Shown here piece after piece: positions 5,400 through 35,623 of a stretch of DNA of 64,000 nt. Below the pieces are notes generated by a model, which worked only from the letters and a program-made list of their open reading frames with translations, did no database searches and was not told the DNA's origin. The first letter of the stretch is position 1; every line of letters starts with the position of its first letter. Source of the stretch: Asterias rubens (taxonomy: Eukaryota); contig NC_047064.1 of NCBI RefSeq assembly GCF_902459465.1, positions 640,762 through 704,761 on the forward strand, in the 5' to 3' direction. A program made the translations under genes and the position numbers.

Positions 5400-5400
5400 T

Positions 5401-6317: not shown

Positions 6318-7347
6318 ACTGAGTCGAAATCGGGGAGCCATCAGTTCGCGCGAGAGCAGTGAGTTCGCGCGAGAGCAGTGTTGTCGGGGGAGCACTATCT
6401 CAGCGCGTGGGGCCGATTTAACGACTTGTCCACAAGTCTAATCCATTGCATGCATTGCAACGAAATAAAGCCCGACATGCGTGCGCGTATGCTTGGCGCG
6501 CGCGGCAGAGTTGTGCAGAAAGGCATTGTAGCTCTCACGTGCTCCTTTTGCTCATAGTCTCGTGAACGCAGTCTCGTGAACAAAGCGCCACTGCCTTCAC
6601 ACACGAAAACACCGCGACCGGGGCATTGACATCCCCAATGGCGCTACTAAAAAATTTTATGAGAGAACGTTCATGTGATTCGGGTAAATTTAATAACGAA
6701 ATCATGATTTGATATTCAAAGTTAATAGGAAAGTTTACTTAGTGTGGGCCACGCCTAAACGAACTACTATAATTGGATACATATGATATAAAAACATATA
6801 CATATCCATATAAATTGGATACATATGATATAAAGTGTTTTTCAATGGCAGAAGAGATCCCCCACCCCACCCAGGTGCTGATGGAGGTGCCTCCTCCACC
6901 ATCTGGCCTGTGCAAGGTGTCTCGCAAGAAGAAGTGACTTTTATCTGGACTCTCTTGAAGACGTGACATGCATATGTGGGACAGAGCCACAAACTATAAA
7001 CACCTATTTGGAGCGAGACTGCAAAATCGAGGACCTTGCACCCAGAGAACAGTTTAAATTGCAATTGGAACTGTGTAAGAGTTCTGGCTGAAACATATCA
7101 TCTAAGTGTTTGGTGGATACGATAAGAAGAAGAATGAAGTCAAAGTTTATGTAAGTGGGTGAGAAATTCACCAGTACTGCAGTGCAGAGAATATCTTTCA
7201 TTTTCTACTTTGTTGTGTATATCTATTTACTTGATCTTGAAAGGTCTGAAATTTTTATTGTTTGTCCCCCTTTCTAAGCCATCGCTTTTGGAGTCCCAGC
7301 AGAGAGGCTTTTTCCTAAACCTGAACTTCGTTTCCGTCTGCGGCTTT
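6314..7347 (+). repeat. segment E1 copy 2
   Basis: See copy 1. It diverges from copy 1 after 7347 (ggctttGGGCTCC versus ggcttttTCAGAT). Confidence 0.85.
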
Positions 7348-8001: not shown

Positions 8002-8080
8002 ATGGCAGACGCCGACACTCCAGCAGCGACTAGATTAGGGCAGGAAAGGGAAAGAGAACGAACCTTATCTGGAAATAGTA
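8002..8080 (+). CDS. PIP5K1: possible first coding exon of PIP5K1 (MADADTPAATRLGQERERERTLSGNS), donor gtaagt at 8081
   Basis: An ATG is followed by an open frame and a strong donor. Its phase (1) does not join the 12505 exon (phase 0), so an intervening exon is either missing or this call is wrong. Confidence 0.25.
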
Positions 8081-8607: not shown

Positions 8608-11384
8608 ATGCGCTGTGAAGGTGCGATTATTATAAGTGTGTACATCAATTCAAGCTGCATTCAAAATATTCATTCACAAATGGTGATGTCAATGAAATAG
8701 CATTTTATTTTTGTATAGTTTTTCAACTGTTTTATATTGTTCAACTTGAACTCAGTAATTTGTCTCTCATTCAATGTTTTGTACAGTCTATAGATTAGTT
8801 CCCACCTGAGGTGCTGTTCACACTTTAAAGTTGAATGTTTTTGAATGCACAAAGCAATTTGTTTTCTTCGCATAAATACTGCATGCGGCACAGACTTAAA
8901 CTCCTTGCATCATTCTTCAGTGAACCGCAGCATTAGACTGCTTTATGCGGCTCATTCAAGCCAAAACCCAAGTTGCTTGTAAAATTACGTCCATTACTGT
9001 CGAATAACTGCAACCAACTCCTCACAGGGAAGTGGTGTGGTGTGGCAAGTGGAAAACATTAGTGGTGAGCTCCCCTCATGAAAGTGGTCATTTGGATTTT
9101 ATCTAGCCTAGTCTTGAACGAGTCTATTGAAGGAGCTTCTCTTATACATTCTGGTAGGCGGTTCCATTCAACGAGTGTTCTTGGAACAAAAGAGAATTTG
9201 TAACAGTCTTTAATGGTTGAAGGGTGGGTGAACGCAATTTATGAGGATTTCCTAGTGATAATTTGGTTTTCCTGTGGTTTGAGTTGATACTGGTCCGTGT
9301 CGATAGCAATTTTATGGTGCACAGATTAATATTTAATGGATATTATCTGCACATATTATGGGGGAAAAAAAAAACCACCTTCCCACATGTGCACTAGGTC
9401 TCCTAAAAGACTGAGAACGAGTTTCAAAACTAGGGCAAAAGGCAAAATTTTGGATAAAGTACCAATACCCTTTAAAAGGTTTCAACCAAAACATTTGAAA
9501 ATTCTAGACCAATTTTTGTATGAGTATTATTTATTATGAGGTCTTCCTATAGTTTGTTCACAACACAAGACAACTTGATTGTAATTTTGTTACTTTCTGA
9601 TGTTTTTATGTGATAAATCATGGTTTTTGCGATTTAAGGTTTTGAACACAGTGTGTTTTGCATTGTTGAGTTTGACGCTTACCACCCCAACAATTCAAAA
9701 TCCAGCAGCATGTTTTGTTTGGGCGTGTTGCGCAAGCGCACCTGTTGAATGAGGTGCATTCTGGGATAGCTATGGATCCAATTTGATCCCTTGTTATCCG
9801 AAAATGCACCTTATTTCACGCCTAATGCGCACCTGAGTATTGCGAAAAACTTATTGTTACAGTGAGGAAGTATCCCAATAATTCGCTCATGGGTGTACTG
9901 TTTAGTGTTAGGGTGTTTTAATGGACCTGTCCTGTACTACACCCACTGCATTTTATTACACATGGTGACACCCCCTCTTGTTGATCATGTGGCAGTCCAA
10001 AGTCATTATTTGTGCTGATCTAAGTAATAGGAGATTCTATTTACAATCGCGTCTGTAATCTCAAAGTTATCTGTACAGTGGTGAGAAGGGCCTGCTAGGA
10101 CAAGAATGTGGTATCTTTAAATAGGGCATGATATCAATATTCTGGCCGTTCAAACAACTCAAATTTGAAGGTCCCCATGGTCCATTTTGTTGGCAAAAGT
10201 TGGTTTTGAGGTTCTTTAGTTATGGTAATTTTGAAATGGCTCTTAACGTTTGAGGACAAGAAAATGGAAAAAAGATGCCTTGTAGACTTTTGTAAAGTAC
10301 CAGGGGCTTTTCCCATTAGTCTCTTTTTTTCTCTTTTTTTCTTGAATGACCCCACAAGTAAACAAATACCACACAGACAAGATACACACACATACTGTAG
10401 CATCTTATTTTTTTCACACAGTCTGTTTTTATCTTCATGTAATATGTGATAAAGTGGCAGTAGGTACATTGTTTTGTTTTGATATTTCTTGTTATTAATT
10501 AGTTATGTCAAGATGAGTATAAATGTTTACAAGTGTAACTGTTGTATGTGTATGCGATTTTGTTATTACAATGTACGTGCTGTTTTGTGCCCAGTCACTT
10601 TCCAACACTACACTGATTGTACGTGAGCACAATGTAATCATTTGTGAATCTGACCTTATTTGAGAAACTATGTTGGCATTTTGAAGGTCAATAGAAATTC
10701 CATGGGCACTCATGCAAGACTGACCAGGTAGATACAGTTCACTGTCCATCATGGGATGAATTCTTATTTTGGTACTGTCTGTCTAGGAAAATGGAAAGTT
10801 GGTGTTTAAAGCAAGTTTACTGGCAATACATGTAGTCTGGAGTTTGTCCTGAACTGTTGGTGACTAGCCAGGAGGACAAGTTGTGTAGCTTCCACTGATT
10901 TCACTAGTCCCGGCCCCCAGCCCAAACGTACAATACAACAGGGACAGATGTCGTCCAGCAACTTTGTTTTAGCAAAATGTTTAGACTGTACAAGTTTTGT
11001 GCACACTGAATATTTATAATTGAGTGGCAAATGGTGGTTTTGGGGTAGCACTGGATACATTTTGGATAGCATTGTTCTCTGCTATATGAGGAAAATCGTT
11101 TTAGTTCGCTGTACAATTAAAGTCTTTAACACGTATAAATTTCCAAAGTATCGGATCAAATATCTAATTTTAGCATACTGCTACTTTTTGTAGTTGACGG
11201 ATTTGAAGGTTGGAATACTGGGTGTGACTAAGTAATGTACACCAAGAATGTGACATCAACTGTTTGTTTTGTTAAATTTGTTTGACTTAATTTGCACATC
11301 AGAAAGGAAAATGGCATTAATTGCCTTTCAATGTCACCTAATCTAACAGGTTTTTGTTTTGTTTTGATGTTTTCCTTTTCCTTC

Positions 11385-12424
11385 TCAGATAAAGGATCAT
11401 CCATGAAGTATAAAAGTCGAGCATCAACTATGGATGGAAGTGTAAGTGCTTTAAATTCTAATCGAGTTGGAAAATTTTTAGGCATTTGAGGTTCAGATTT
11501 ACTCAAGAGATTGGGTTGCTCGAGGAATATGCCAGTGATTTTTTTCACATAGCTCAAGAAATGACCGAGTATACAGTGCTAACACATGTTGCAATTCTAG
11601 AGCAGTGTCATACCAACTAGACCACCGAGGTTGCCCGGCAGCTAGAGGCAGTTCGAATCCTATGTTTTGGCAGCGGGTACCGCAACGATATAATAGATAT
11701 AATAGATGTTGAATTTGCATCGGGGATAAAGAATATTAATTTTGGTTTTTTACCCATACACCGATGTGTGTTAGCACTGTATACTCAGTACTTTCCCGAG
11801 TCCTGTGAAAAAATATCACAGGCATGTTACTCGGGTAACTTTTGTTTTCCCTCGCCCATCTTGAGGTATATTTTCTTATATTTGGTTTTGTACTGTTTGG
11901 CAAATAAAATAATAATAACATCCTAATCAGATAACAGTTGGTATCACATTGACATCCTGGTATTGCACGCATGTCGTACCTTAGTGTCGGATCTTCTTTG
12001 CATTGTGATTGGTCAATACGCAATGGGGCTAAGCTTAATGGATCGGTCTATTGTCTGAAACAAAAATCATGTTATTGGCCTGCTGGTCTGTCACAGGTTG
12101 TAGTTTGGGAACTGGCCTGGTGAACACTGACCAATCTTGTTTCTTTATCTTTTCTTCTATTCATTGTTCTATTGTAAGGGTGGCTGGTAATAGTATAAAA
12201 CATTGTGAGAAACAGCTCCCAGTGAAGAAACTAAGTTTTTGAGAAAGAAGTTATTTTCAACGAATTTGAAATTCGAAAGGATCTGAAAGCACACAACTTC
12301 GTGTGACACAGGTGTTTTTTCTTTCATTATTATCTCAGGTTTGTTGTTTTATGCATATTGAGATGGATACACTAAGTGAGAAGACTGGTCTTTGACAGTT
12401 ACCAATAGTGTCCAGTGTCTTTTA
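11385..12424 (+). mobile_element. segment E2 copy 2 (11385-12301) continuous with a MITE-A 3' end and TIR (12302-12424): a long MITE-A-related element
   Basis: After CACAACTTCG it continues tgtgacacaggtgttttt...accaatagtgtccagtgtc, exactly as the MITE-A interior does (cacgacttcgtgtgtgacaagggtg). Confidence 0.7.
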
Positions 12425-12504: not shown

Positions 12505-12594
12505 AGTCCTGTTCTTGATGGACCAACCACCCCAAGACAGAAGAAGATTGGCCACAGGAGGGTTGACACCTTAGGGGAAACAACATATAAAAAG
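12505..12594 (+). CDS. PIP5K1: PIP5K1 exon: SPVLDGPTTPRQKKIGHRRVDTLGETTYKK
   Basis: Matches the conserved PIP5K N-terminal motif KKIGHRxVD..GETTYKK. The acceptor is ctccctttag and the donor is gtaagt. Confidence 0.75.
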
Positions 12595-17267: not shown

Positions 17268-17570
17268 TTAAAGCCATTGGACCCTTTCGGTTCAGAAACA
17301 AAAACAAAAAGTTCACAGATTTACAAATAACTTACAGGGTTTACAGTTAAGGCAAGCAATGGTGAAAGACTTCTCTTGAAATATTATTCCATGAAATGCT
17401 TTACTTTTTGAAAAAACAGCAAAACAATATAAATTCTCGTTAACAAGAATTACGGATTTATTTTAAACACATGTCATGACACGGCGAAACGCGCGGAAAC
17501 AAGGGTGGGTTTTTCCGTTGTTTTCTCCCGACTCCGATGACCGATTGAGCCTAAATTTTCACAATTGGAA
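17268..17570 (+). mobile_element. MITE-D 5' part (truncated; no 3' TIR)
   Basis: TTAAAGCCATTGGACCCTTTCGGT... Its interior is identical in organisation to 50925-51293. Confidence 0.6.
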
Positions 17571-18353
17571 GCCTCCTCAATACTATGAAGTAATGATTCT
17601 GCAACTGATGTTGACAAGAGTGCTACATCATGGAGACGGATCTCTGGATAACGACTGCTCTTTCTTTCTTTAAGCACAATTCCTGTTTGCTGCTGAATAC
17701 CTCGTAAAGCGTGCCTCATTATATAATCCAGCACAACCACGAAGAGGAAAGGTGCTAAAGTAAATAACAAAAGGATGGTCAGATAAATCCAACCTAAACA
17801 ATGATAGAAGATTTAAAGGATGTATTCTAAATGTATCAAAATAATAGCCTCTCACACATTCAGCAGTTAAAAATTTTCAGTTTTAAAAATAGACTTCACA
17901 CAAGTCCCTCGAATTAATCTGCATCTCAACCTACATCGCTTTGACTGCCTCATGCATACTTCTCTCAACTGGTTTACCGACGTGATGTATTGATTCTTTA
18001 GGGAGGGGACCGTCCAAAGTGGCATTTTCATCATCTCTTGGGGGGTGTAGTCTGAGCTAGCTGAGAAAAGCCACGCCCGAGCGCTCTGCTTAGTGGTGCC
18101 TGACATAAACCAAATCTGGTTACTCATCGCAAGAAAACACAAGTCTAAGACTTCAGTGGGTTGTACGACATGTTGTTACAGACAGTGTCTTCAGCTGGCA
18201 TACATTTGGTCAGCGTTTTCTCATTTGATTTCAATCTGTATGTCATCATTACTACGGCACACGCCGTGTGTTACTTTAGATTGAAACCATGTCGGAGTGG
18301 GAAAGAAATCCAGGAATTTAATGAAATATAGATATTTGAAGGTTGCTATTCAA

Positions 18354-18990
18354 TTAGATTAGAATGGGTGGATGAAGGGGTGGGTGGGTATAGGGCAAGG
18401 TTGAGAAATGGGATTGCATTGGATGGGTTGAGTGAAGAGGTACAAGTGGGAATGCATTAGGATGGGTGGATGAATGGGTAGTGGGTATGAGTAAGGTCGA
18501 GGGTGGAACACTGCATCTTAGAATGGGTGAATAAAGGGTAAGGTTGAGGAATGGGTTTGCATTAGGATGGGTGGATGAATGTGTAGTGGGTATGAGTAAG
18601 GTCAAGGGTGGAACAATGCATCAGGATGGTTGGATGAAGGGGTGGGCGGGTAAAGGGTAAGGTTGAGGAATGAGGATTGCATTAGGATCAGTGGATGAAA
18701 GGGTAGTGGGTATGAGTAAGGTCGAGGGTGGAACACTGCATCTTAGAATGGGTGAATAAAGGGTAAGGTTGAGGAATGGGTTTGCATTAGGATGGGTGGA
18801 TGAAGGGGTGGGTGGGTAACACTGGGTATAGGGCAGGGCTGAGGAATTGCAAAACTACCACAGGATGGGTGGATAAATGGGTGGGTGATTAAATGGTGGA
18901 GGAAGGATAAAGTTGCATTTGAATCAATTCAGTGGAGGGAGGGTTGTCGGGTGGATGGGATGGGTAGAGGGCAAGAGGGAAAATTGCTTG
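18354..18990. repeat. satellite block, GGGTGGATGAA/GGGTAAGGTTGAGGAATGGG motifs with a ~105-120-bp higher-order unit x~5
   Basis: Repeated blocks at 18460-18565, 18566-18685 and 18686-18790. The ORF 18354..18605(-) is a repeat artefact. Confidence 0.8.
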
Positions 18991-20313: not shown

Positions 20314-20721
20314 TTAAAGACACTGGACACTATTAGTGATTGTCAAAGACCAGTCTTCCCACTTGGTGTTTCTCAACATGTGCATAAAATAACAAACCTG
20401 TGAAAATTTGAACTCAATTGGTCGTCGAAGTAGCGAGATAATAATGAATGAAAAAAACACCCTTGTCACACAAATTTTGTGTGTGTGTGCTTTCAGATGC
20501 TTGATTTCGAGACCTCAAATTCTAAACCTGAGGTCTCAAAATCAAATTCGTGGAAAATTAATTCTTTCTAAAGAACTACATCACTTCAGAGGGAGCCATT
20601 TCTCGCAATTTTTTATACCATCAACCTCTCCCTATAACTTGTTACAAAATAAGGTATTACTATTTTGAGTAATTACCAATAACTATTTTTAGTAATTACC
20701 AATATTGTCCACTGCCTTTAA
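20314..20721 (-). mobile_element. MITE-A full copy, inverted relative to 19777-20120 and 193 bp away
   Basis: TTAAAG ACACTGGACACTATTAGTGATTGTC ... ACCAATATTGTCCACTGCC TTTAA. Confidence 0.7.
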
Positions 20722-21459
20722 GCGTTGCATTTTGTTGCTTGTGTCGTAGACCTATTTCACGACCCACATTCTGTGTAGAGCAGACACTACGTGCAACACA
20801 CCAAAAGCAAACTACATATTCAAAAAGAAACTTTACCATATAATTGGGTTACTGAACCTACAATAATACACAAGTAACACACCATTGATATTGTATTTTT
20901 GTAACTTGATGTCCTGGTTTCTCATTGTTGCATTTGATCTTGAGATGTTGTGTTTGCATTGATCAAACAAGGAAAACAGTTTCATATAATTATTACACTA
21001 TACAAGAAAAAAGTATAGTGTGTCATTAGTTTCCTTGGGATTGTTCACCCAGTAATTTTTTGTAATTTATATAGTTTTTATATTGTTTGTGTATATTGTA
21101 TTTGGCCAGTGTATGTCAAGTTTCTATGTTTTTAACATGGACAAATAAATAAAATCTAGTCTAAATCTAATCTAAATTTAATCTAAATCTAATTACATGT
21201 AGTATAGTGTACAGAATATTGTGTCAATACAGTGTGCATGTATGAGAGTGGGAACCATAAATTCATTACATGTTAATTTGGTTGCAAAAATATCTAAGTT
21301 GTGTATTATTTGATCATCTGGCTCCATCTGACAAGCCTTAAACATTTTAGATGTTTGTTCATGGTGATATGGTCTAATCCAATAATCAATTTGTGAATGT
21401 TTATGGAGTTTGCAGAGAAGTTTAACCAATACTTTTTCTGGTATATTCTTTCCTTGCAG

Positions 21460-21518
21460 ACAAGTTCTTCGGCTTTGATGGCCGCAATTCAACTTGGTAT
21501 TGGTCATTCAGTGGGAAG
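21460..21518 (+). pseudogene. partial duplicate (copy 1) of the 5' 59 nt of PIP5K1 exon 21656..21786 with its acceptor; no donor
   Basis: Part of a 98-bp x3 tandem array (21421-21714). The third copy is the real exon start. Confidence 0.7.
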
Positions 21519-21557
21519 TTTAACCAATACTTTTTCTGGTATATTCTTTCCTTGCAG

Positions 21558-21616
21558 ACAAGTTCTTCGGCTTTGATGGCCGCAATTCAACTTGGTATTG
21601 GTCATTCAGTGGGAAG
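21558..21616 (+). pseudogene. partial duplicate (copy 2) of PIP5K1 exon start with acceptor
   Basis: Same 98-bp array, identical in sequence. Confidence 0.7.
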
Positions 21617-21655
21617 TTTAACCAATACTTTTTCTGGTATATTCTTTCCTTGCAG

Positions 21656-21786
21656 ACAAGTTCTTCGGCTTTGATGGCCGCAATTCAACTTGGTATTGGT
21701 CATTCAGTGGGAAGTTTATCAGCCAAACCAGAGAGAGACGTCCTTTTACAAGACTTCGCCGTCGTCGAGAGTATATTTTTCCCAAG
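21656..21786 (+). CDS. PIP5K1: PIP5K1 exon: [43 protein letters not shown](S)
   Basis: Near-identical to the vertebrate PIP5K1 segment [36 protein letters not shown]. The acceptor is ccttgcag and the donor is AG|gttaaa. Confidence 0.9.
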
Positions 21787-22002
21787 GTTAAAACTTAAGA
21801 CTTTTCTATTCTATAAAAATATCTTATATTATTGAATACTGTGGGGGGGGGGGGGGGGAGCTCATGCACTTCAGAGCATTTCAAACTATATCAGGACAAA
21901 CCCAAGAGAGTTTGAGGAATGTGGTTTACTGTGCCAGGCTTGTATGCTTTGTTTTTGAAATGGCACCAAGTATGGGGCACCCTTTGAGGAAATTGTGAAT
22001 TC

Positions 22003-22757
22003 CACTGATGTTATTGATTTCACTGATGTTATTGATTTCACTGATGTTATTGATTTCACTGATGTTATTGATTTCACTGATGTTATTGATTTTACTGATG
22101 ACATTGATTTCACTGATGACATTGATTTCACTGATGTTATTGATTTCACTGATGTTATTGATTTCACTGAAGTTATTGATTTCACTGATGTTATTGATTT
22201 CACTGATGACATTGATTTCACTGATGTTATTGATTTCAGTGATGTTATTGATTTCACTGATGTTATTGATTTCACTGATGTTATTGATTTCACTGATGTT
22301 ATTGATTTCACTGATGTTATTGATTTCACTGATGTTATTGATTTCAGTGATGTTATTGATTTCACTGATGTTATTGATTTCACTGATGTTATTGATTTCA
22401 CTGATGTTATTGATTTCACTGATGTTATTGATTTCACTGATGTTATTGATTTCACTGATGTTATTGATTTCACTGATGTTATTGATTTCACTGATGTTAT
22501 TGATTTCACTGATGACATTGATTTCACTGATGTTATTGATTTCACTGATGTTATTGATTTCACTGATGACATTGATTTCACTGATGTTATTGATTTCACT
22601 GATGTTATTGATTTCACTGATGTTATTGATTTCACTGATGTTATTGATTTCACTGATGTTATTGATTTCACTGATGTTATTGATTTCACTGATGTTATTG
22701 ATTTCACTGATGACATTGATTTCACTGATGACATTGATTTGATTTCACTTATTTCAC
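22003..22757. repeat. 18-bp minisatellite (CACTGATGTTATTGATTT, variant ..GACATTGATTT) ~41 copies inside PIP5K1 intron 21787-22807
   Basis: Explains the 244-282-aa ORFs in three frames (21886..22734-, 21995..22810+, 22008..22742+). Confidence 0.95.
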
Positions 22758-22807
22758 TGATTTTGATGATTTTATCTGATTTTAACTTCCATTCAATCCT
22801 GTTGCAG

Positions 22808-22925
22808 TGAGGGGAGTAACATTACACCAGCACACAGTTATCCAGACTTTAGATTCAAGACATATGCACCAATTGCCTTCCGATATTTCAGAGAACTGTT
22901 TGGAATTCAACCGGATGACTTCTTG
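22808..22925 (+). CDS. PIP5K1: PIP5K1 exon: (S)[39 protein letters not shown]
   Basis: Matches [38 protein letters not shown]. The acceptor is tgttgcag and the donor is gtgagt. Confidence 0.9.
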
Positions 22926-23261
22926 GTGAGTTGAGATGCATGTCAGCCATATTTGTTAATTTCTATGGGGAGAGATTGGGTGAATCGGTTGTAGGCCTGT
23001 ATGCTTCATTTTTAAAAAGGACACGGACACCAAGGCATTTTCTCCTTGGTAAAGGGCATCCTTTGAGGACATTTTAAAGTTCTACTGGAACATTTCAAGG
23101 GCACAAAGGGGGCATGGAGGCAATCGCCTTTGTTGGTTCTGTGAAGTATCAGGCCTGATGTGGTAAACAATTTCTCCCCCACCCCTTCCCAGGATTATTA
23201 ACAGTCAGTTCTTATACACATTTTATGCACCAGGATCTTAAAGCACTTATTGATATCGAAG

Positions 23262-24240
23262 ACTGGGGTTGCTAAGGTTTTGAATTATGACACCTATTTA
23301 CACTACACCCTGTAAGTGTTTTACAAGGTGACAGGCAGAGTCGGCAGCCAACCATACCAGAAAACACAGAGGCAAACCCCTTCTATTAACGATACCTGTA
23401 CTGAGTAATTTTACATTCATTTCACAACAAATGGGACCAACAACTTCATGTCCCATCAAAGAAAGAAGTAGATGTTGGTTTAAGTGCCGTGCTTATGGAC
23501 AAACATGTCAAGACCAGTACTCGAACCCACACTCTGCTGATCAGAAACACCAGAGCTTGAGTCCACTCAAGCCACAAATACATCTTGTATTCTTAGAGCA
23601 ATGGAAAGAGCAAGAAATAGACAAATAAAAAACATTTATTTCTAAAATACATTTAAGAAGGATCAGTCGGTTCTTATACAATGCTTTATTAACGGTCTCT
23701 TAAAGAGCTTAGTGATCTGTATCTAAGACTGATTTGTTATGGTTTTGAATAATAACACCCATTGATAATGCACCTTGTAAGTGTTTTACATGGTGACTGG
23801 ATCAGTATTGAGAAGAGTAGGGGGAAAGGGGTAGGCAGTAGAGCAGAAATGTGGTAGGAAAGGTGGGATGGAGTGGAAAGGAGGGGTGAGAAAACATATA
23901 ATGGAGGGAAAATGATAACAGAGTGTGTAGTGATATTGTACCGATAAGGAAAAGGAAAAACACCACGGATCAGCAACACTAGAGCTTGAGTGCACTCTCA
24001 TGCCACACTATGCCACAGAAGAGGGGAAGGGGTTCAGCAGAAAGGAGTAGAGGAGGGGGAAGATTGGAGTGGAGGGGTGGGGAGGGGGGCATGGGATACA
24101 TGTCAGAGAAATTACAAGAGATTATAGTGAAAGATAAGGAAAAGGGAAAAGATAGCACAAGATAAAGAGAACCACTGTCTACCATTGACATCAATGCTGA
24201 GTTCCTCATGGATATCTTAGATTCAATGGAATGATTCATA
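23262..24240. repeat. two diverged direct copies (~23270-23575 and ~23737-24000) of an unclassified ~300-bp repeat, plus a GA-rich tandem remnant
   Basis: They share a head (GGTTTTGAAT.AT.ACACC...CCTTGTAAGTGTTTTACA.GGTGAC) and a tail (GATCAG.AACAC.AGAGCTTGAGT.CACTC). Confidence 0.35.
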
Positions 24241-27200
24241 ATGAATTCACAGACGTCTCTAGCCCTGACCTACATGTATGCCACCCACCCCCTTCCTTTC
24301 AAATGTCTGTCTTGGTTTTAGTCTTGGAATAACACAGGATTTCACAGGCATGATACTCTTCAGTTTGTTTTCTGATTTTTCTGTTCAGCTTAACAACAGC
24401 TGTATCCATGGCAACGAGGGTTGAAGATGTCATTTCGTTGGGTGCCAGACAGCATCAAATGAGATAAAAATGGATCAGTTACAAAAAAATTCTCGTTGGG
24501 ACAAAGTCATTTCCTGGGCATGAAAAATGTGAGGAATTAGATGAAAGATAATGTTTGCTTCAGAAACGAAGAAGTCTAATTTGAGATTGGTACCCGTGCA
24601 ACCAGGTGTTTAGGTGATTAAGGTTGAGCAGTGAATGACAGCTAAATGATGGGTTCTTGTAAGATGCTTTATTTCCAATCTGTGACATGGCGGGAATATG
24701 ATGGTGTTTCTTGTCTTGGTTTTGGCACCAGGGCGGCAGAGAGAGAGCGGAGTGACGTGCTATGAATCTATTACGAGGGTAGGAATGTTGTTAGGTACAC
24801 AACAAACATAATTGGCTAGGAAGGAACTGGCAACGGATCAGAGCAATGAAGGGAACCAGTGAATACCAAGTGAGATACTTCCGTGTATCCCCCAGTGCGT
24901 TCAAGTAGTAGCTTTGACGTCATTGTTTTGGCTCACTCAGGACAGACCCAAGTAAAACAAGTTCGTCCCAGGTGCATGGCGTCATGCCTCAAACAAGTTT
25001 CAATGGCAACCATTTTTTTTTTAATTCAGCATGACACTTTCAGAAAGATTGACACTCATAAAACAGCAACTTTGTGAGCATTAAGTCACATTGTGGATTT
25101 TAAAAAGGATGTCATATTAAGTTTTTTTATCAAAATAAGAATAGGTTTTCAATAGTAATATTAATGTCTCCTAAGAAGATAAACAAGATGTGGTTAATTA
25201 AACTCATTTCCTGTTCCTTTTCAGTATTTAGCTAGTACAACCCAGATTACATTTGGATGTTGTACTGTACATGGCTTATCGTTGCTTAGCGGTCAAATGG
25301 CCACTGATTTTTTTTTATCATCATTTCAAGTTCCGGTCTTGACACATGTGTTTGTTAACCATCATTGCGTCATCGTATGGATTGGACGTATTATTATGTA
25401 AAGCCTTATTCCCATGTGTTGTGTGCAAATGTATGCACGAAAAAGCACCAAGTACACTTATTATCATAGAAGAATAGGGGTTCACCCCATTGTTTCTGGC
25501 ATGGCAGGCTGCATAAAGTTTGTGCCACAACTACATGTACATGAGCATGTATGGTTCTTACGATTTCAAACATAAATCTGCATTCCTGTAGGAGATAGGC
25601 CTATTACTTATCGGATATGAAAAGCACTAAATAAGAACTGTGTAATACATGTACATATTATTTAAACTACCTGTACATGTACATCTGTAACTAGTCATCA
25701 ACATCTACAAAACGTATGTATTGTACACGGAATGTGTACTGTACATGCATACATGTATACTACATACATACATTAGGCATGTGATGTGAAGTGTAGATAT
25801 ACATTATTCCCTTCATCAAGGTACATACATTAAATCCGCATCAGTGATAATGCATGCATTGCCTGTCTGTCAAACACAACAAATTGCTGATTAAATATTG
25901 TGATATTTCAATGTTTTCAAATTTACGTAAATACCACTCATCAATCAAATACAAGTATTTGAATTGACAATAATCAAATTTGGGTACAAGAGATTCTGGT
26001 GCTGATATTCCACTAGAAACTACTGTCCCATTTATATGAATCTAAAACACACATTGTGAATGTGTACACTGTGCATCAATACTCATTGATATTACATGTG
26101 CCTGAGCTTCACAGACGTCAATTCACATGCTGGATAAATTTCTGTTTTAATCATCACTATTTGATTCTGTCTCTGACGTGCGTACTTCATCAGGCAAGAG
26201 AGACAAACTACCCTAAGGTTCTAACCACCTTCTTGATCAATTGTGTTCGGTAACTCTCATATTTTCAAAAACAGATGAACAAATATTTTGAACAAAATGA
26301 TGTGTTTTCTTCGTGAGAAGCGAGAGTATTGTGTTACTTCACCATTAGATTAGAGAGATTAGACTTAAGATTTGTCTTGAGGGAGTGAGGTTGTAATTTT
26401 GACGACACATAACATGTTTTGTTACTCTAAGGCAGATTCTATTGAAGTTATACATTAGGGCTCGGTACATCCTTTGTGTTTGCAGAGAGTAAAGTGAAGT
26501 GATAATTAGATTGGATGTACCTGTGTAAAGTCGTCTTGGGCTGAGAGGAGAGTCTTGTTAATTGAGGTGATTGACCTCTAGCCATGCGTGGTGTTGTCTT
26601 GTGAGTGTTCAGTTGCAGCTGAGATGCTTAGCATTCTACTTGCCTCAGGTTTTAAAAGCTGGAAGTTACATGCTCTATTACAGTGTTTGTTTGGCCATTT
26701 ATACAAAAAATCAAAGTTTCTTAGAATTCTCACTCGACCAAAAAAAAAAAAAAAAACACAGGCTGTTTTTTATTATGCATTATTTCTCTTTGTCTCAGTA
26801 TACAATTGAAAGAAACACCAAAGTTCACAGTTTTTTTCCCATGTCCAACTTGTTTTTCATACATGTAAGCAAACTCAGAGTTGATGGAAATGAAAATGAT
26901 TTGCAATTTATTAGTCAAATTCTTACTAGAATATCAGTAGAAGAAACTAAATCTTCTGTTGATATACAGAAGTGCCTAAGATGACAGATTTTACCCATGT
27001 GATGTCCAACTTGTTTCTTCTAGTAATCTCAGTGTATAGAGAGGGGAATGATAATGTTCCAATTTATTAGTCAAACTCACTACCTGCAATTTGGACAATG
27101 TGAAGCTTCAAGAGCAGCGAGTCTGTTTTGTCTGCAACCTTCTACTAGATTCTTAGAGTATGGGTATAAAGATGCACCAGTGAACATCACTACTCAAGGA

Positions 27201-29090
27201 TGAGTAAGTTATTAAGATGTAAAGCCTTGAGACTTCTTATAGGGCTCAGGGGTATATGTCTACTTCGACCCTTTCCCACTGGAGAGATTTTACTGGAAAT
27301 TCTGAGAAAAATTATATGACCTTTTCACACCTCGATTATTCACCCTTCAAAACTCAATAGGTACCCTTCATTTGGGTGTGGGGTTAAGGGCTAGGCTTAC
27401 AGTTTTCATTTTCCACAGAAGTGTAAACTGAAGATGGGTGAAAGTGGGGTTCAAATTCCCCAGGGTTTCGGTGGTGTGAACAGGGCTAAGATAATGCCTG
27501 AAGCCTCTCTCATTGTCCTCTAGTCTTGCCTCACCACAATGCAATTACTTGTTTAGTCCCTTGGGTCTGTCTGTCTGATGGCATTGTCTGTCTGTCTGTA
27601 TTAATGCATGCAATTTGCATGTAATTAACTAGGAGTCGCTCAAATGGACAGTGAACTTGAGCTGATGCTTTTTGAGCCCATTTCACAAGTCATTATGGGC
27701 TGTTTATAAACATGTATCTCTAACGGCCTGGACGCTTGGATATATTATTCTAATTATGCTGAACCAGGGTCGATCGGCACAATCTCTCTACATGGGGACA
27801 AGGTTGTCAATGTGTGTGTAAAACCTCAACCCCATGATGTCGGCCATGTAATTTGATTAAGAGACCTTAGTGATGGGAAGAGGGGGGGGGCGTGGCGTGT
27901 TGTAACGTGTACCTTTGCCACTGTATGCAGATTCTGTGCGTGTAACGGAAGAGCAGAATTAAATTAAATAAATTAAAGGCTATCAACACCATACATGTGA
28001 TTGGGAGACCGTCTCTAATTGAATTAAGAGAAATTAAGTGTAATAGGTACATATGTACATGGATAAGGGAACATCAAATATGCTAAGCAAAATAAGCTTA
28101 CCAGCCAAAATACCATGTCACATACATGTATGACTGGTGTTGTTTGATTGGTTATTTTTTCTTGCTTAGCAGAAAAATTGTTTTAACAAGCAATATTTTA
28201 TGCTTAGTACAGCTCTATGACATTGAGCACAGGTCCATGAAGACAGAAATTTAATGGTTCCAAAACGCAAAGGTATGCTTTGTCTATAAATAGCCTGGAA
28301 GGTAAAATAAAGCCTACACTATAAACAAGTACATGTGTGTAGGATAGCCGATTAAATACTTGACTAAATATTCCTACGTTTTTCCATATCATGTCTGATT
28401 AGGCTATCCCTTGAAATATTTTTGTTCTCTTAAAAATTAAAGGATTGAAATGAAAATGTTGGACTGAAAACCAGTGCTGTAGCATTCCTTGAAAGGACAT
28501 TGCTCTTTTTGTAAATCCTTTAGGTCTACCTTATGTTTTTGGTTAATCTACCCAGGCTGCCTGTCAATTTAGGGTCTTATTGAGGTTCATACACGGAACA
28601 CCTTAACGTCATCAGAGATTGCACATATGTTGCAATATATGATACTATATGACCTTTACAGACTGAGTAATGGCGTTATAATGTACTGTCTGTATGAATG
28701 GATTGTTACTATACAAACGTGTAAGCTTCAAACGCTCAAACTGAGTGCCATGAGAGCACATTTCACAAACACTAGAATGAAAGACGACAATTGTTTAACA
28801 GATGTTGGACACACATGAACGATACGTGGATGTAATTTATGCAGATAGACAGCTTGGTTTAAAAATACAATTAACGATGAACCTGTATGTCATGTTGATC
28901 AAATTTAAATGTCTGATTTTTAACTTGCTGTCTCAGTCAGTAGTATTTTGTTGTTAATCTTGTTGTTGGTTATAAAATACAACAAACATGTAACATGTAT
29001 CATGTTGATGAAATTGACATGCCTGGTTTTAAAATTTTATCTTGTGTTCTCATTTATGTCAGTAGTGTGCTGTTGTTTTGTAATTTAAAA

Positions 29091-29196
29091 TTAACTTATT
29101 AAATGTATTTTCTAAGAAACACAGCCAAATACTCCTGTGATTTTGTTTACGTGAGTATTTGGCTGTGTTTCTTAGAAAATACATTTAATAAGTTGA
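29091..29196. repeat. hairpin: 44-bp stem (1 mismatch) and 18-nt loop
   Basis: ttaacttattaaatgtattttctaagaaacacagccaaatactc ... gagtatttggctgtgtttcttagaaaatacatttaataagttga. Confidence 0.85.
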
Positions 29197-29749
29197 TATT
29201 TTACCAGCCTGATGAACGTCTTTCATGAATTTAAAATTAGCAGAACAAGGCCATAGGAAAAGACGATTGTAAGAACAGATGAAAATTTCTCTGTTTTTAG
29301 ATAAATATCTTCTTCAAGAAGTAAAATCTCATCGACCTTGGAAGACAGATGATTTTCCATTGCAGCACCGCATTTCTGGAATCAGCTATCCCTAAAACCT
29401 CTAATAATATTCACTCATTCAAAAAGTCTCTCAAAACACACCTACATTTAGTTCCTCTTAACTTAATTTTCTTTTGGTCCCTTTACCTTGCTTGATTTTC
29501 TCTTCCTTTGGTAGAGCGTCTTGAGCAACTTTGGTGGATTTGTGCACTTTATAAGACCTTGTCATTATTATTATTGTTGCCTAAGATGGTCCGGTCTAGA
29601 TCAAAAGCTAAGGCCATCTACCCTACGCCTTGAACACCCAGCAGGGTGGATATGTGCGCATTACAAGTCTTATTATTTATTATTTATTTATTTTTTATTA
29701 TTATACCGTACTTTACACTTTAGTCATTTTCCGTTTTGATTCTTTGTAG

Positions 29750-29902
29750 ATATCTCTGGTAGATCAGGCTTTACGAGAGTTGTCTAATCCTGGAGCTAGT
29801 GGAAGTGTCTTCTATCTTACTGATGATGATGAGTTTATCATTAAGACTGTACAACATAAGGAAGCAGACTTTCTTCAGAAGCTGCTACCCGGTTATTACA
29901 TG
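29750..29902 (+). CDS. PIP5K1: PIP5K1 kinase-core exon: [51 protein letters not shown]
   Basis: Matches the PIPK catalytic core motif [11 protein letters not shown]..[26 protein letters not shown]. The acceptor is tctttgtag and the donor is gtaagt. Confidence 0.95.
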
Positions 29903-29960
29903 GTAAGTCAAACATCTAAAGGTTGTGGGTTCAAATCTCACCCGAGTCATATATCCCTAT

Positions 29961-30086
29961 GAGTTGTCTAATCCTGGAGCTAGTGCGAGTGTCTTCTATC
30001 TTACTGATGATGATGAGTTTATCATTAAGACTGTACAACATAAGGAAGCAGACTTTCTTCAGAAGCTGCTACCCGGTTATTACATG
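29961..30086 (+). pseudogene. duplicate (copy 2) of the PIP5K1 kinase-core exon segment LSNPGAS(A)SVFY...GYYM with an intact gtaagt donor; 2-nt change GGAAGT to GCGAGT
   Basis: Member of a 184-bp x3 tandem array. It lacks the 27 nt 5' of the real exon. An AG at 29962-29963 (tatgag) would give an in-frame 123-nt cassette. Confidence 0.6.
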
Positions 30087-30144
30087 GTAAGTCAAACATC
30101 TTAAGGTTGTGGGTTCAAATCTCACCCGAGTCATATATCCCTAT

Positions 30145-30271
30145 GAGTTGTCTAATCCTGGAGCTAGTGCGAGTGTCTTCTATCTTACTGATGATGATGA
30201 GTTTATCATTAAGACTTGTACAACATAAGGAAGCAGACTCCCTTCAGAAGCTGCTACCTGGTTATTACATG
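30145..30271 (+). pseudogene. degenerate copy 3 of the same exon segment (1-nt insertion frameshift; further substitutions)
   Basis: 184-bp array; aagacttgtacaac has one extra T compared with the real exon. Confidence 0.6.
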
Positions 30272-30662
30272 GTAAGTCAAACATCTTTGCATCTTGAAAC
30301 GGAAGTTCATGAGATTTGTTCTTCAATTTAAAGGTAGATTGGCAAAGGTCGTGGGTTCAAATCCCACACGAATCATTTGCCTGTGATTTAATTTGTTTTT
30401 CTTCACAGAACTCTGAAAAGTACTGAAGTATACAGTGCACATCAGTGTGAGGGTAGAACCTTTCACTAAATATGAAGGGTTTTTTTCCCCTTTTTAAATG
30501 CGCCGTTTTAAAGTCACCTGGAAATATTTTTTTTTTTCTTTCAAACATAAGAGTATGTGCTTACGAATAATAAAACAATTTTTTTAGTAATTGTTTGTCA
30601 CGATTTATATGTTTAAAAAATATATAAAGTTGTTAGGGGGGCTGACTCCGCCTACCCCTTTT

Positions 30663-30924
30663 GTGACGTCAATCGAGGCAGACTTTGCCTGCAATGCGTA
30701 TAGTAAACACACGTGCAAAGTACATGTACGTCCAAGTCGTGAGTTGGTACATTTCAAAAAGTGTTTTTCTGCATTCAGCAGCAATACACCTGGTCGGCAT
30801 TGCCGGAAAAAAAACAATTTTTTTTTTTTTTAAATGTACAAACTCACGACTTGGTCCGTACATGTACTTTGCAATTGTGTTTACTCTACGCATTACAGGC
30901 AAAGTCTGCCTCGATTGACGTCAC
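30663..30924. mobile_element. inverted-repeat element: ~110-bp arms (~88% identical) starting GTGACGTCAATCGAGGCAGAC, ~40-bp spacer
   Basis: Symmetric ORF translations on both strands (30605..30817- versus 30761..30967+), and the arms are visible in the sequence. Confidence 0.5.
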
Positions 30925-31939
30925 GAACAGCGCCCTCTCGGGTCGGGGTCTACTCTTAAATTTGTAAATAACATAAGAACTGGTTTTTTAAAACCTTAGT
31001 TAACTGTTTATTCACATTCCACTCATCAAAACACATATATTAGTGACAAAAGCTTTATTTTGAAAAAGTACCACTTCCAGGTGACTTTAAATTCATCACT
31101 TTGCAGGGTTACAAAATTTCAGTTATTTTTCTTATCAACATTTAGAAAAGCTTAACAAAATTAACTCAGATTTTTTGTTTTACACAGAATTTTGAAACAC
31201 CTACAACAGAACAAGGGTAATTTTAGTTTCAAGCCCCCCCCCCCCCCCAAAAAAAATATTAAAAAAATAAATAAATAAATAAATAAATAAAAGCGGACTG
31301 AAAGAGTCAAAGGAAGGATCTGAGCTCCTCCTTTGGGATTATTATCTTACGGGTCCTCCATGACTGGAGAGGGATTTATTAATATTTCTTAAGACTTAAG
31401 AGTCATTCATTATTCACATAAATACCCATTGGCTCTTTGTCTAGTACATGTTGTTCATGACGCCAGTACATCCCGACTTGCAACAAATTACATGTAATGC
31501 ATGTATTTTTTTCGACAGGAAAATAAATAAATAAATTCTGGAACATCTGGGACGTTTTTCCTCCCAAATTGCTTGAGCAAACAAAGTTGTAAAATTTGAT
31601 CCCACGCAAAGAGAGTTTGGATGAATAATCATGCTATGTCAATGTGTAGTACCACCATATTGGGTGTGACTCATTTACACTAAAACCAATATTTCATTTG
31701 CAGATATTGTTTTTGTCTTTTGGTCCATTTTGTCATTTTCCAAATAGAATAGGAAATAAAATTAGCTGTTGCAAAATGCTTACCGACCAAAAGGACCAAT
31801 AGTGTAAAATAAAAAAATAGTTAATTGACCTCACTTTGACCAGACTCTGCTAGGGTCAAAATGGGACAATAACTGTTTTTGCAATAAATATTAATTTAAC
31901 CCCATATTTTACATGAAGTTTCTTTCTTTACCGCTCTAG

Positions 31940-32239
31940 AATCTGAACCAAAACCCGCGAACGTTACTACCCAAGTTCTATGGATTGTACACCTACCAGA
32001 GCGGAGGTCGTAATATTCGTCTGGTTGTTATGAACAACTTGATGCCATCAGACATTACAATGCACCAGAAGTTTGACCTGAAGGGGTCAACATACAAGAG
32101 GAAGGCTTCAAAAGCTGAGAGGCAGAAGAAATCTCCAACATTGAAAGATTTAGATTTTATGGAAGTGCATCCGGAGGGTTTAATGTTAGACACTGCGACT
32201 TACAATGCTCTGGTGAAGACACTACAGCGTGACTGTAGG
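31940..32239 (+). CDS. PIP5K1: PIP5K1 exon: [38 protein letters not shown]...[32 protein letters not shown]
   Basis: 100 codons, colinear with vertebrate PIP5K1 ([50 protein letters not shown]). The acceptor is ctctag and the donor is gtaggt. Confidence 0.95.
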
Positions 32240-32364
32240 GTAGGTACTATGTGGAGCTAGATTTATCCCCTTCTTGGTCCTCCCCTCTCAGAAAAAAACT
32301 TTGGTATCTTTATTATTGTTTGATATTCTAGATCTAGATACATTCAGACAGGCCTTGAACTTTC

Positions 32365-32622
32365 CTCTGGAAGGGGCAGGGCATGTGTCCTCTGGTAAGG
32401 GGCAGGGCATGTGACCTCTGGAAGGGGCAGGGCATGTGTCCTCTGGAAGGGGCAGGGCATGTGTCCTCTGGAAGGGGCAGGGCATGTGTCCTCTGGAAGG
32501 GGCAGGGCATGTGTCCTCTGGAAGGGGCAGGGCATGTGTCCTCTGGTAAGGGGCAGGGCATGTGTCCTCTGGAAGGGGCAGGGCATGTGTCCTCTGGAAG
32601 GGGCAGGGCATGTGTCCTCTGA
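32365..32622. repeat. 25/28-bp minisatellite (GGGGCAGGGCATGTGTCCTCTGGAA) x~10 in a PIP5K1 intron
   Basis: Direct tandem repeat. The ORFs at 32288-32843 are artefacts. Confidence 0.9.
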
Positions 32623-33117
32623 AAGGGGCACTTCTATGGGGAAAGGTCAATTTGTATTTGAACTTTGCAAAAGGGCACCACAGTAAAAGCACAGGGCACC
32701 ACGTTCATGTAAGCTGTAGATGCTTCAATTTCCCTTCATCCCAAATGTCCTCCTATTTTGCTCTCTGGTTATCTGCTGGCAGCACAAATACTTCTTATGT
32801 CAGTAAAGTAACCGGTAACCATTTGCCTCTGAATCTGAACTAAGTCGGCAACACATCCTAATGGAAACATCACACCAACTATTTGTGGAGAAGACACTGA
32901 AGAAATTCCAGTTTTAATTGTGGGAGAAAAACCCCTTTATAGGGTAAACCCACGCAGTCAAGCGGGGGAAGAAAAAAAATCTGGAAAACAAAATCCACAT
33001 GCAAGGCTCCGGTCTGGGCTCGAACCGGGGTTCAAAGAAGTGAAAGGCATATAGAGAAATAACTTAGCCAGCCTGACTACCAATACTTACTTACTGTGGA
33101 TTTTCTCTCTATTTCAG

Positions 33118-33195
33118 GTCTTGGAAAGTTTTAAGATTATGGATTACAGTTTACTGGTGTCAATGCACAATGTTGACCAAGCAGAGACTGAAAAG
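33118..33195 (+). CDS. PIP5K1: PIP5K1 exon: VLESFKIMDYSLLVSMHNVDQAETEK
   Basis: Matches VLQSFKIMDYSLLMSIHNIDHAQRE. The acceptor is tatttcag and the donor is gtaagt. Confidence 0.9.
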
Positions 33196-33433
33196 GTAAG
33201 TCTTACTGGAGGAGTGGTGGAAAACCCAGGTACATGACATATAAAATGGAACAAAAATAGCTTGAAATTGCTTTGAAAATATTGTCATTACAACCAGTAG
33301 ACAAGCTGCTATCTTCCCTCCGCATCACTGATCCCACAAAGAATGCATTCATGATATAAGTATTAACGTTCTATAATTGTAGCAATTATTATTACTTTTT
33401 GTAGCAATTATTATTCCTTTTTTTTTTTTTTTT

Positions 33434-33765
33434 GGGGGGGGGGTTGAACCAACGACCTCCGGATTAACGTGCCGGCGCTCTACCAACTGAGCTATCCCCT
33501 GGTGATCCCCTGGATGCCGCTTCCCAGGTTATATCGGAATTTGGGTGTGATCCCTGGCTACACGGCAGTTGACGGTTACATGGCTTCTGACTGGCACCTA
33601 TTGACGAAATAGGGACACCGCTAATATAGGGCTAGATAGCTCAGTTGGTAGAGCGCCGGGTTGTTGGTTCGAATCCCACTCTAGTCAATTCTTTGTTCAA
33701 CCCCAAAAGTCATTTAAAAAATTACCCAGTCAGTTTCCCTTGTGGTTTATATTGATAATTATTAT
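33434..33765 (+). mobile_element. composite tRNA-derived SINE locus: inverted partial tRNA-like head, X region, forward tRNA-like head (anticodon arm deleted), AATTCTTTGTTCAACCCCAAAAG tail
   Basis: GGGCTAGATAGCTCAGTTGGTAGAGCGCCGG..GTTGGTTCGAATCCCACTCTAGTCA. It is the reverse complement of locus 51749-52065. Confidence 0.55.
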
Positions 33766-33821
33766 TACTGTGATGACACATTTAACAAAGTGATCTTGTA
33801 TTTTTCTTTGGCTGTGGTTAG

Positions 33822-34099
33822 CGCAATGAAAACAACAGTACAGACGGCAACACAGAATCCAGAACAGCTGATATTCAGCAACCTCAACAGACCTCTGAGA
33901 TTATTAAACGTCCAACGATGCTCCGAAGTCTCTCAGATTCAGGTTCGGCTGAAGAGCATCATGGAGATAAACCACCTCACAGATTAGAAAGATCCAAGTC
34001 TTATCTTAATAAATCCAAACGGCCTGCTTTCTCGACAACGAGAGAGGCGATTCAAGGGCATACGAAGGAAACATGGGTGCCAGAAGATGAAGAGGAACC
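33822..34099 (+). CDS. PIP5K1: PIP5K1 variable-linker exon (92 codons, Ser/Glu-rich; ...STTREAIQGHTKETWVPEDEEEP)
   Basis: Open frame from the acceptor ggttag to the donor CC|gtaagt. Both phases link the flanking conserved exons. The AIQG motif aligns to vertebrate AMESIQGE just before the GGIP motif. Confidence 0.7.
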
Positions 34100-34595: not shown

Positions 34596-34679
34596 GAATG
34601 GTGGTATTCCAGGCAAGAATTTCAAAGGAGAACGTATCGAACTGTTTATAGGAATTATTGATATATTGCAATGCTTCAA
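34596..34679 (+). CDS. PIP5K1: PIP5K1 exon: (P)[27 protein letters not shown](K)
   Basis: Matches [27 protein letters not shown]. The acceptor is ttttcag and the donor is AA|gtaagt. Confidence 0.9.
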
Positions 34680-35489: not shown

Positions 35490-35623
35490 ATTGAAAAAGA
35501 AATTAGAACACACGTGGAAGAAAATGGTGCATGATGGAGACACAGTTTCTGTTCACCGACCGAGCTTCTACGCCTCGCGCTTTCAAGAATTTATGTCCAA
35601 AACTGTCTTCAGGAAGATGCCAC
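35490..35623 (+). CDS. PIP5K1: PIP5K1 exon: (K)[44 protein letters not shown]
   Basis: Matches [44 protein letters not shown]. The acceptor is ccaaacag and the donor is gtaagt. Confidence 0.9.

Follow-up and report, generated by a model that had tools for sequence, protein, structure and literature searches.

In a 64,000-nucleotide stretch of the genome of the starfish Asterias rubens (RefSeq assembly GCF_902459465.1, contig NC_047064.1, positions 640,762 to 704,761 of the forward strand; hereafter the window), the gene for a type I PIP5K contains a perfect tandem array of three 98-bp units, each of which carries the end of an intron, a candidate 3' splice site and the beginning of the following exon. 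We consider it likely that this array is a lineage-specific microhomology-mediated tandem duplication (MTD) which has grown to three copies, is real and recent, and is tolerated with the distal acceptor in use.

Tandem Repeats Finder (TRF) describes the array with a period of 98, 3.1 copies, 100% matches, no indels and a score of 604; a repeat search of the window returned three 106-nt copies at a spacing of 98, all 100% identical to each other, and self-BLAST also supports the array. The fully periodic stretch amounts to 302 bp, that is, three 98-bp units and a terminal 8-bp GAAGTTTA, and this 8-mer is found four times, at both edges of the array and at both internal junctions (Table 1). Perfect periodicity over 302 bp is not producible by chance. 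One unit consists of 39 nt of intron end, gtttaaccaatactttttctggtatattctttccttgcag (...ttccttgcag), and the first 59 nt of the exon (ACAAGT...GTGGGAA). The sole yTnAy branch-point candidate in the intronic part is TTAAC, with its A at -35, and each acceptor has a pyrimidine tract of 15 pyrimidines in 20 positions followed by the AG. The three acceptors are identical in the branch-point candidate, the tract and the AG, and are comparable to the other acceptors of the PIP5K gene; because a unit carries all of these elements together with 59 exon nucleotides, the pre-mRNA presents the spliceosome with three 3' splice sites of the same sequence. With AGs ending at positions 21459, 21557 and 21655, the two decoys lie 196 and 98 nt upstream of the third acceptor, and only the third copy continues into the remaining exon and a donor. 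A preliminary description of this DNA had delineated this array with its register displaced by 4 nt (21421-21714); its account of the unit as 39 nt of intron and 59 nt of exon, of three identical copies, of two upstream decoy acceptors and of a last copy that alone reaches the rest of the exon (21656-21786) and the donor (21787) is borne out here.

The ancestral state is seen in the corresponding locus of Asterias amurensis (GCA_032118995.1, CP134956.1), which is 90-95% identical to the window at the DNA level. This locus holds a single copy, at positions 18336-18441 in our numbering, with the same left and right flanks as in the window. The A. amurensis copy is bounded by two GAAGTTTA 8-mers exactly 98 bp apart, one in the intron, 43 nt upstream of the AG, and the other in the exon. 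As a class, MTDs arise through slippage during replication or through faulty processing of Okazaki fragments, and they can be reversed. Both sequence marks of an MTD are found: in A. amurensis, the segment lies between identical short direct repeats, and in A. rubens, the unit length equals the spacing of the microhomologies, the units are arranged head to tail, there are n+1 microhomologies and there is no filler sequence. Replication slippage or template switching between the GAAGTTTA microhomologies would duplicate the intervening 98 bp, and the resulting 98-bp homology would allow one more unit to be added, most simply by slippage or unequal exchange between the first two copies; if the third copy arose in this way, copy number is likely to vary between individuals. 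The copies show no differences, whereas the flanks of the two species diverge by 6-10%, which places the event well after the species split, dated to approximately 28 My ago in one study (PMC11090083). According to the literature, MTD is the principal origin of tandem duplications as well as of new tandem repeats (PMC8639346; bioRxiv 10.64898/2026.02.28.708716). The slippage or template switching that had been put forward in the preliminary description is thus supported and, given the 98-bp-spaced 8-mers of A. amurensis, can be sharpened to MTD.

Evidence that the array is present outside the reference assembly comes from environmental DNA. A look-up of exact matches to a 104-aa minus-strand open reading frame (ORF), which spans unit 1 and extends into the unique upstream intron, matched three contigs from three ENA metagenome samples (SOLA22-1; SAMEA7060530, SAMEA7060541 and SAMEA7060540); literature searches with the accessions of the samples and of the assembly had no hits. 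All three contigs run from the unique upstream sequence through the junction between copies 1 and 2, so that the copy junction is found in 3 of the 3 contigs with the flanking ORF and the single-copy state in 0 of 3. The first contig (L002, 1122 bp) is 100% identical to window positions 20546-21667 and includes both copy junctions; the other two include the first junction and differ from the window by three single-nucleotide polymorphisms (SNPs) (L003, 1086 bp) and by one (L004, 752 bp). The contig ends share one repeat phase, at 21569 or 21667, which, we infer, is consistent with a looped k=55 de Bruijn graph through which the assembler passed once or twice. A double passage, as in L002, implies at least three copies, a step that depends on the reconstructed behaviour of the assembler; L003 and L004 show at least two copies, and short-read graph loops cannot count copies. 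Accordingly, the contigs establish at least two copies in wild DNA and support at least three. Because the junction occurs in three independent assemblies, two of them with SNPs of their own, the array is not an artefact of the assembly of the window, and wild DNA carries the duplication on three haplotype backgrounds or more. Exact-protein look-ups with the junction ORF (59 aa) and with the right-exit ORFs (55 aa and 61 aa) matched no further contigs; contigs on the exit side are probably too short, bounded as they are by an 18-bp minisatellite.

An assembly artefact, in which the genome would have one 98-bp copy and the extra ones would have been made by the assembler or by polishing, would explain the perfect identity of the copies and would fit a window with further near-perfect duplications and, in the upstream part of this gene, a perfect palindrome of 239 bp. 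Yet the junction is found in three contigs from three samples, two with SNPs and one with both junctions, and it falls on an 8-bp microhomology already present in the single-copy sequence, a position that an assembler would have no cause to favour. We consider this explanation extremely improbable, and the assembly noise allowed for in the preliminary description is not supported, given the three independent metagenome contigs that carry the junction.

The gene that hosts the array is encoded on the plus strand, and its exons were located by tblastn with a human PIP5K1A sequence, which was used for exon location only, the results being then read from the window. The 11-exon model (12505-12594, 21656-21786, 22808-22925, 29750-29902, 31940-32239, 33118-33195, 33822-34099, 34596-34679, 35490-35623, 39950-40132 and 40491-40550) has canonical AG/GT boundaries and consistent phases, and uses the third acceptor; the two remaining coding exons are 8002-8080, which holds the initiator ATG, and 11389-11441. 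The 536-aa translation of the model matches the RefSeq Asterias PIP5K1 cluster (A. amurensis and A. rubens), where the protein is named 'PIP5K type-1 alpha-like', from end to end with 100% identity, and is 79% identical to the amphioxus protein; the Pfam domain PF01504 is precomputed on all matches of the model protein. Judged by its PIPK catalytic domain (PF01504) and type I signatures, the product is a type I PIP5K. The last exon in the window encodes ...ILHSDKEAENVG, the same as in A. rubens XP_033624185, where A. amurensis has ...DEEAENVG; together with the 90-95% DNA identity to A. amurensis, this makes A. rubens the most likely source of the window. The proteins of the two species differ by one residue (K/E) in 647-665 aligned residues.

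A unit of 98 nt is not divisible by 3, and for this reason the frame is kept by the last acceptor only. With the upstream exon joined to 21656, the 11-exon ORF is open and 100% identical to RefSeq; with the same exon joined to 21460 or to 21558, translation runs into a TGA (Table 1), and decoy use is predicted to yield a truncated ORF of 112 residues ending in QVLRL-stop. The junction sequence is ...TATAAAAAG/ACAAGT, the predicted productive transcript reads ...GTGGGAAGTTTATCAGCC and the predicted decoy-spliced transcript ...GTGGGAAGTTTAACCAATAC, with GTGGGAAGTTTAACCAAT as the predicted mark of decoy-spliced transcripts. Use of the third acceptor would merge copies 1 and 2 into the 9-kb intron and leave the protein unchanged, and the gene would survive as long as splicing goes sufficiently often to the acceptor nearest to the exon body and its donor, as under exon definition. 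Use of an upstream acceptor would bring in an early stop, and such transcripts would be removed by nonsense-mediated decay (NMD), which is to be expected because the truncated ORF ends far upstream of the later exon junctions. On this view, the array would be an insertion that is tolerated at a slight cost and not an adaptation; it has been argued that a partly spliced-out intragenic duplication can spread if reduced dosage is tolerated (PMC3265369). Our best estimate, from the layout of the splice sites, is that the distal acceptor, the closest to the exon body and to its weak donor AAG/gttaaa, would be used at a level sufficient for gene function. Some splicing to the decoys is probable, with NMD clearing the resulting transcripts, although the balance between this and complete silence of the decoys is close to equal. 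A homology search with the predicted 112-aa decoy product gave no match. Decoy mini-exons were considered and rejected: the only GT following the 59-nt fragment is in GAA/gtttaa, a donor of very low quality, and inclusion of the 59 nt would put the reading frame out.

The RefSeq isoforms of the two species differ at precisely this position. The A. rubens isoforms X1, X2 and X3 (665, 663 and 647 aa) correspond to A. amurensis X2, X3 and X4 (745, 743 and 727 aa) minus residues 1-80, the match being exact apart from the single K/E difference. Of the four A. rubens isoforms, these three have Met81, whose codon lies inside the repeated unit, as their first residue; the fourth, X4, is full length (760 aa) and includes the repeat-encoded peptide once, and the full N-terminus is present in 5 of 5 A. 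amurensis isoforms. The simplest reading is that the X1-X3 models enter the exon at a decoy acceptor, so that the N-terminal ORF is broken and the pipeline falls back on the next long ORF. The truncated isoforms, recorded as XP_033624182, XP_033624183 and XP_033624184, probably follow from the triplicated acceptor, via either real decoy splicing or ambiguity in read mapping. Skipping of the ATG exon was rejected as the cause of the Met81 start: the next exon has in-frame ATGs (MKYKS...) upstream of Met81.

Whether decoy splicing is real bears on a further explanation, namely that the insertion is silent with respect to splicing, with the third acceptor essentially always used and the truncated RefSeq isoforms being artefacts of ambiguous read mapping. 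Such silence would agree with the strong constraint on the protein implied by the single K/E difference, with the presence of the array on at least three haplotype backgrounds, which argues that it is not strongly deleterious, and with the inability of short junction reads to tell the three acceptors apart; moreover, the donor-side minisatellites of F7 IVS7, LMNB2 and PDGF use one of many identical sites (PMC1557585). However, experiments with duplicated acceptors conflict: with globin constructs carrying duplicated sites, one group observed use of the proximal copy only and another the opposite (discussion in PMC1557585). A BRCA1 allele in which the tail of intron 9 and the start of exon 10 are duplicated in tandem gave cDNA that retained the duplicated piece of intron, with a resulting frameshift, which means that the upstream acceptor was used (PMC11839443), and all three starfish acceptors are complete and identical. 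A fully silent insertion therefore appears to us possible but somewhat doubtful.

The array could also be viewed as a functional switch, in which the decoys would tune the dosage of PIP5K by unproductive splicing or give rise to a truncated kinase by termination-reinitiation. The stop of the decoy ORF overlaps the ATG of the next copy (TGATG), and the entire kinase domain is in frame with the last of these ATGs; the RefSeq isoforms X1-X3 start at exactly this Met81, and the Met81 product keeps all of the sequence that aligns to the conserved PIPK core. Against such a role, the array is absent from A. amurensis, whose gene works without it, the copies are identical through youth and not through conservation, and the 98 bp x 3 array is one of many neutral-looking arrays at the locus. 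Reinitiation after an ORF of 112 codons is normally very inefficient, which also counts against a switch; at Met81 it is made unlikely by the length of the upstream ORF, by the youth of the array and by a sister species that manages without the array. We regard a switch of this kind as very unlikely, and scarcely less so the proposition that the triplicated acceptor is a built-in dosage or isoform device, whereby reinitiation or NMD-coupled splicing would lower PIP5K output or yield a kinase without its first 80 residues. Should it be true, it would provide a natural, species-specific case of a micro-duplication that instantly creates regulated alternative 3' splice-site use.

Several points weigh against our preferred reading, a recent MTD tolerated with the distal acceptor in use. 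Acceptor usage is deduced from the DNA sequence. Reads with fewer than 59 nt past the junction fit the three acceptors equally, so that X1-X3 could be annotation artefacts, and an alternative promoter for these isoforms is possible. The outgroup comparison consists of A. amurensis only, and the case against a loss in that species consists only of parsimony and of the complete identity of the copies. The short-read contigs prove at least two copies, with at least three suggested through the assembler path alone. Finally, near-perfect duplications (4366-5399 with 6314-7347, and 5398-6317 with 11382-12301) and the palindrome at 4254-4492 mark a structurally unusual region of the assembly.

Table 1. 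Features of the 98-bp array and of the neighbouring PIP5K exons (positions in the window)
Feature	Position	Strand	Evidence or remark
Upstream exon (SPVLDG...GETTYKK), phase 0 end; donor faces three acceptors across a ~9-kb intron	12505..12594	+	
Whole array, 3 x 98 bp and terminal 8-mer	21417..21718	+	TRF, repeat search, self-BLAST
GAAGTTTA occurrence 1, left edge, ancestral	21417..21424	+	Same place in single-copy A. amurensis
Decoy 3' splice region 1: TTAAC (A at 21425), tract, AG 21458-21459	21421..21459	+	
Decoy exon start 1, 59 nt; part of the intron when splicing goes to the third acceptor	21460..21518	+	
GAAGTTTA occurrence 2, copy 1/copy 2 junction	21515..21522	+	Also in contigs L002, L003 and L004
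Decoy 3' splice region 2, AG 21556-21557	21519..21557	+	
Decoy exon start 2, 59 nt	21558..21616	+	
TGA stop of the frame entered at acceptor 1 (21460); shares bases with the ATG of copy 2 (TGATG)	21574..21576	+	
GAAGTTTA occurrence 3, copy 2/copy 3 junction	21613..21620	+	Also in contig L002
3' splice region of the frame-preserving acceptor, AG 21654-21655	21617..21655	+	Gene model
Real exon, 131 nt, phase 0 start; donor AAG/gttaaa at 21787	21656..21786	+	tblastn, 11-exon model, RefSeq identity
TGA stop of the frame entered at acceptor 2 (21558); shares a base with the ATG at 21674-21676	21672..21674	+	
ATG of Met81 (MAAIQLG...), start codon of RefSeq A. rubens X1-X3	21674..21676	+	
GAAGTTTA occurrence 4, right edge, ancestral, inside the real exon, codons G-S-L	21711..21718	+	
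Next downstream exon (...DDFL)	22808..22925	+	
Real exon with duplicated 3' part; donor GT at 29903, decoy donors at 30087 and 30272	29750..29902	+	

The preliminary description had also mentioned a second duplication of an exon boundary in the same gene, and this array does exist, at 29777-30286. According to TRF, it comprises 2.8 copies of a 184-bp unit with ~97% identity, and the unit consists of the last 126 nt of the exon 29750-29902, the donor ATG/gtaagt and 58 nt of intron. Copy 1, which forms the real exon end, encodes the conserved GASGS and has kept the left flank of the ancestral sequence. In both other copies the motif is mutated to GASAS; the third carries, in addition, an insertion of 1 nt and adjoins the right flank of the ancestral sequence. 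In A. amurensis, the unit is present once. This array is older and clearly real; a protein look-up with its junction matched no contig. The intronic tail of the 184-bp unit resembles a tRNA-like short interspersed nuclear element (SINE) fragment located ~60 nt further down the ancestral intron, a displacement which implies that the history of the array includes an extra deletion or a more complex event. Such fragments, with a GGTTCAAATC T-arm, are found at 29917-29960, 30101-30144, 30343-30386, 33500-33719 and 51733-51979, and ARAGORN detects a tRNA-Asn-like sequence at 51765-51837 on the minus strand, in a repeat 82% similar to 33500-33719.

Both Asterias loci hold many small, often perfect tandem arrays. 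When the 18 arrays of the gene are placed at random, 2.0 are expected on exon boundaries and 2 are observed (permutation, P(>=2)=0.63); for the two long-unit arrays alone, the chance that both hit a boundary is 0.04, a selection made post hoc. A hotspot of duplication at exon boundaries was accordingly rejected, and the local peculiarity hinted at in the preliminary description on the strength of two events in one gene is unsupported. The intron immediately after the triplicated exon contains a minisatellite of 18 bp x 41 (96%; 21999-22763), where A. amurensis has ~80 bp of degenerate 9-mers, and a second minisatellite, 22 bp x 53, lies before the last exon (41987-43165; 28.5 copies in A. amurensis). 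Arrays of 20 x 6, 33 x 3, 25 x 10.6, 16 x 7.6 and 29 x 7 also differ between the species, and the turnover of tandem arrays at this locus is therefore high. In the same intron that follows the triplicated exon, a run of ~18 G at 21834-21852, 50 nt past the exon donor (~12 G in A. amurensis), could be a G-run splicing element or a mere mutable homopolymer.

Other observations concern the remainder of the gene. The duplications at its upstream end follow the layout A-B-A'-X-B', with the copies of A 100% identical over 1034 bp and those of B differing by 1 mismatch in 920 bp. Segment B includes a second copy of coding exon 2 (5405-5457, corresponding to 11389-11441), and the extra A-B copy is devoid of the 4-kb X segment that bears the ATG exon. 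The 239-bp palindrome is located at the start of A, the junctions share 2-4 bp of microhomology (TTCG), and A. amurensis has a single A-X-B. A protein look-up with the B/A' junction gave no independent contig, and the A-B duplication could be a very recent complex duplication or an artefact of haplotypes or assembly. Within the 9-kb intron upstream of the array, an ORF at 17474-17770 on the minus strand encodes what we take to be a reverse-transcriptase-like motif (…FVVVLDYIMRHALRG…); the surrounding part did not align to A. amurensis in megablast, which suggests a lineage-specific retroelement fragment. The closest relative outside Asterias is a 1.7-kb contig (GCA_014845345.1, JACSEG010016447.1; L001) with 96% aa and 92% nt identity, matching window positions 22740-34024. 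It is cDNA-like and partly spliced, with five exons joined and intron sequence kept at both ends, suggestive of an RNA-derived sequence or a processed copy in its assembly; because it begins downstream of the array, it is uninformative on the latter.

The locus amounts to a natural experiment, with three identical, complete 3' splice sites 98 nt apart in an essential, conserved gene and a single-copy sister species for comparison. It could be used to address how the spliceosome picks among identical acceptors, by proximity to the upstream donor or by exon definition, in parallel to what F7 IVS7 offers for donors, and it displays the states before and after an MTD in an animal germline. It also carries a caveat for annotation, short junction reads being ambiguous here, which bears on the N-terminally truncated PIP5K1 models of A. 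rubens. No new kind of element or mechanism is revealed.

Among known systems, the closest are minisatellites whose first monomer spans an exon-intron boundary, as in the 37-bp variable number tandem repeat of human F7 IVS7 and in the genes 6-16, CBS, LMNB2 and PDGF (PMC1557585). In these as in the starfish gene, an array lies over an exon boundary and identical pseudo-sites are located in the intron, and in the F7 IVS7 type copy number varies in the population and normal mRNA is still made via the site next to the exon body, which is used either alone or along with the nearest pseudo-sites. Identical reiteration of a splice site is found in both starfish arrays, as three acceptors in the 98-bp array and three ATG/gtaagt donors in the 184-bp array. 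The latter, with its reiterated downstream donors, is a direct donor-side example of the F7 IVS7 type, whereas the 98-bp array is its mirror image: the monomer across the intron-exon boundary is the last one, the decoys lie upstream, and what is reiterated is the 3' splice site with its branch-point candidate. Unlike the F7 IVS7 type, the starfish arrays have few copies (3) and units of 98 and 184 bp. A literature search for an acceptor-side boundary minisatellite found none in the searchable library.

The BRCA1 duplication resembles the starfish array in that an intron tail, an acceptor and an exon start are placed in tandem and out of frame, but it is a 2-kb duplication found in a patient and classed as pathogenic, whereas the starfish unit is 98 bp long, triplicated, and present on several wild haplotypes of a healthy species. 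In the Rogers model of intron creation, in which an AGGT inside an exon is duplicated in tandem and yields a new donor-acceptor pair, exemplified by ATP2A1 (Hellsten et al. 2011, PMC3265369), splicing likewise removes the duplicated material and leaves the peptide unchanged, and partial splicing efficiency is tolerable at first. The starfish array, however, makes no new intron: the duplicated segment already held the acceptor, the position of the intron is the same in A. amurensis, and the existing intron is lengthened by 196 nt, with former exon sequence turned intronic. As in described MTDs, a segment with an 8-bp direct repeat 98 bp apart has become a head-to-tail array with n+1 microhomologies, and the ancestral state is visible in the sister species; the known cases are subclonal and microbial, whereas the starfish array is probably a fixed or common germline allele of an animal, for which the mechanism is inferred from sequence. 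The array thus belongs to known kinds, MTD-born tandem repeats and boundary-spanning splice-site arrays, with its acceptor-side position as the less documented twist.

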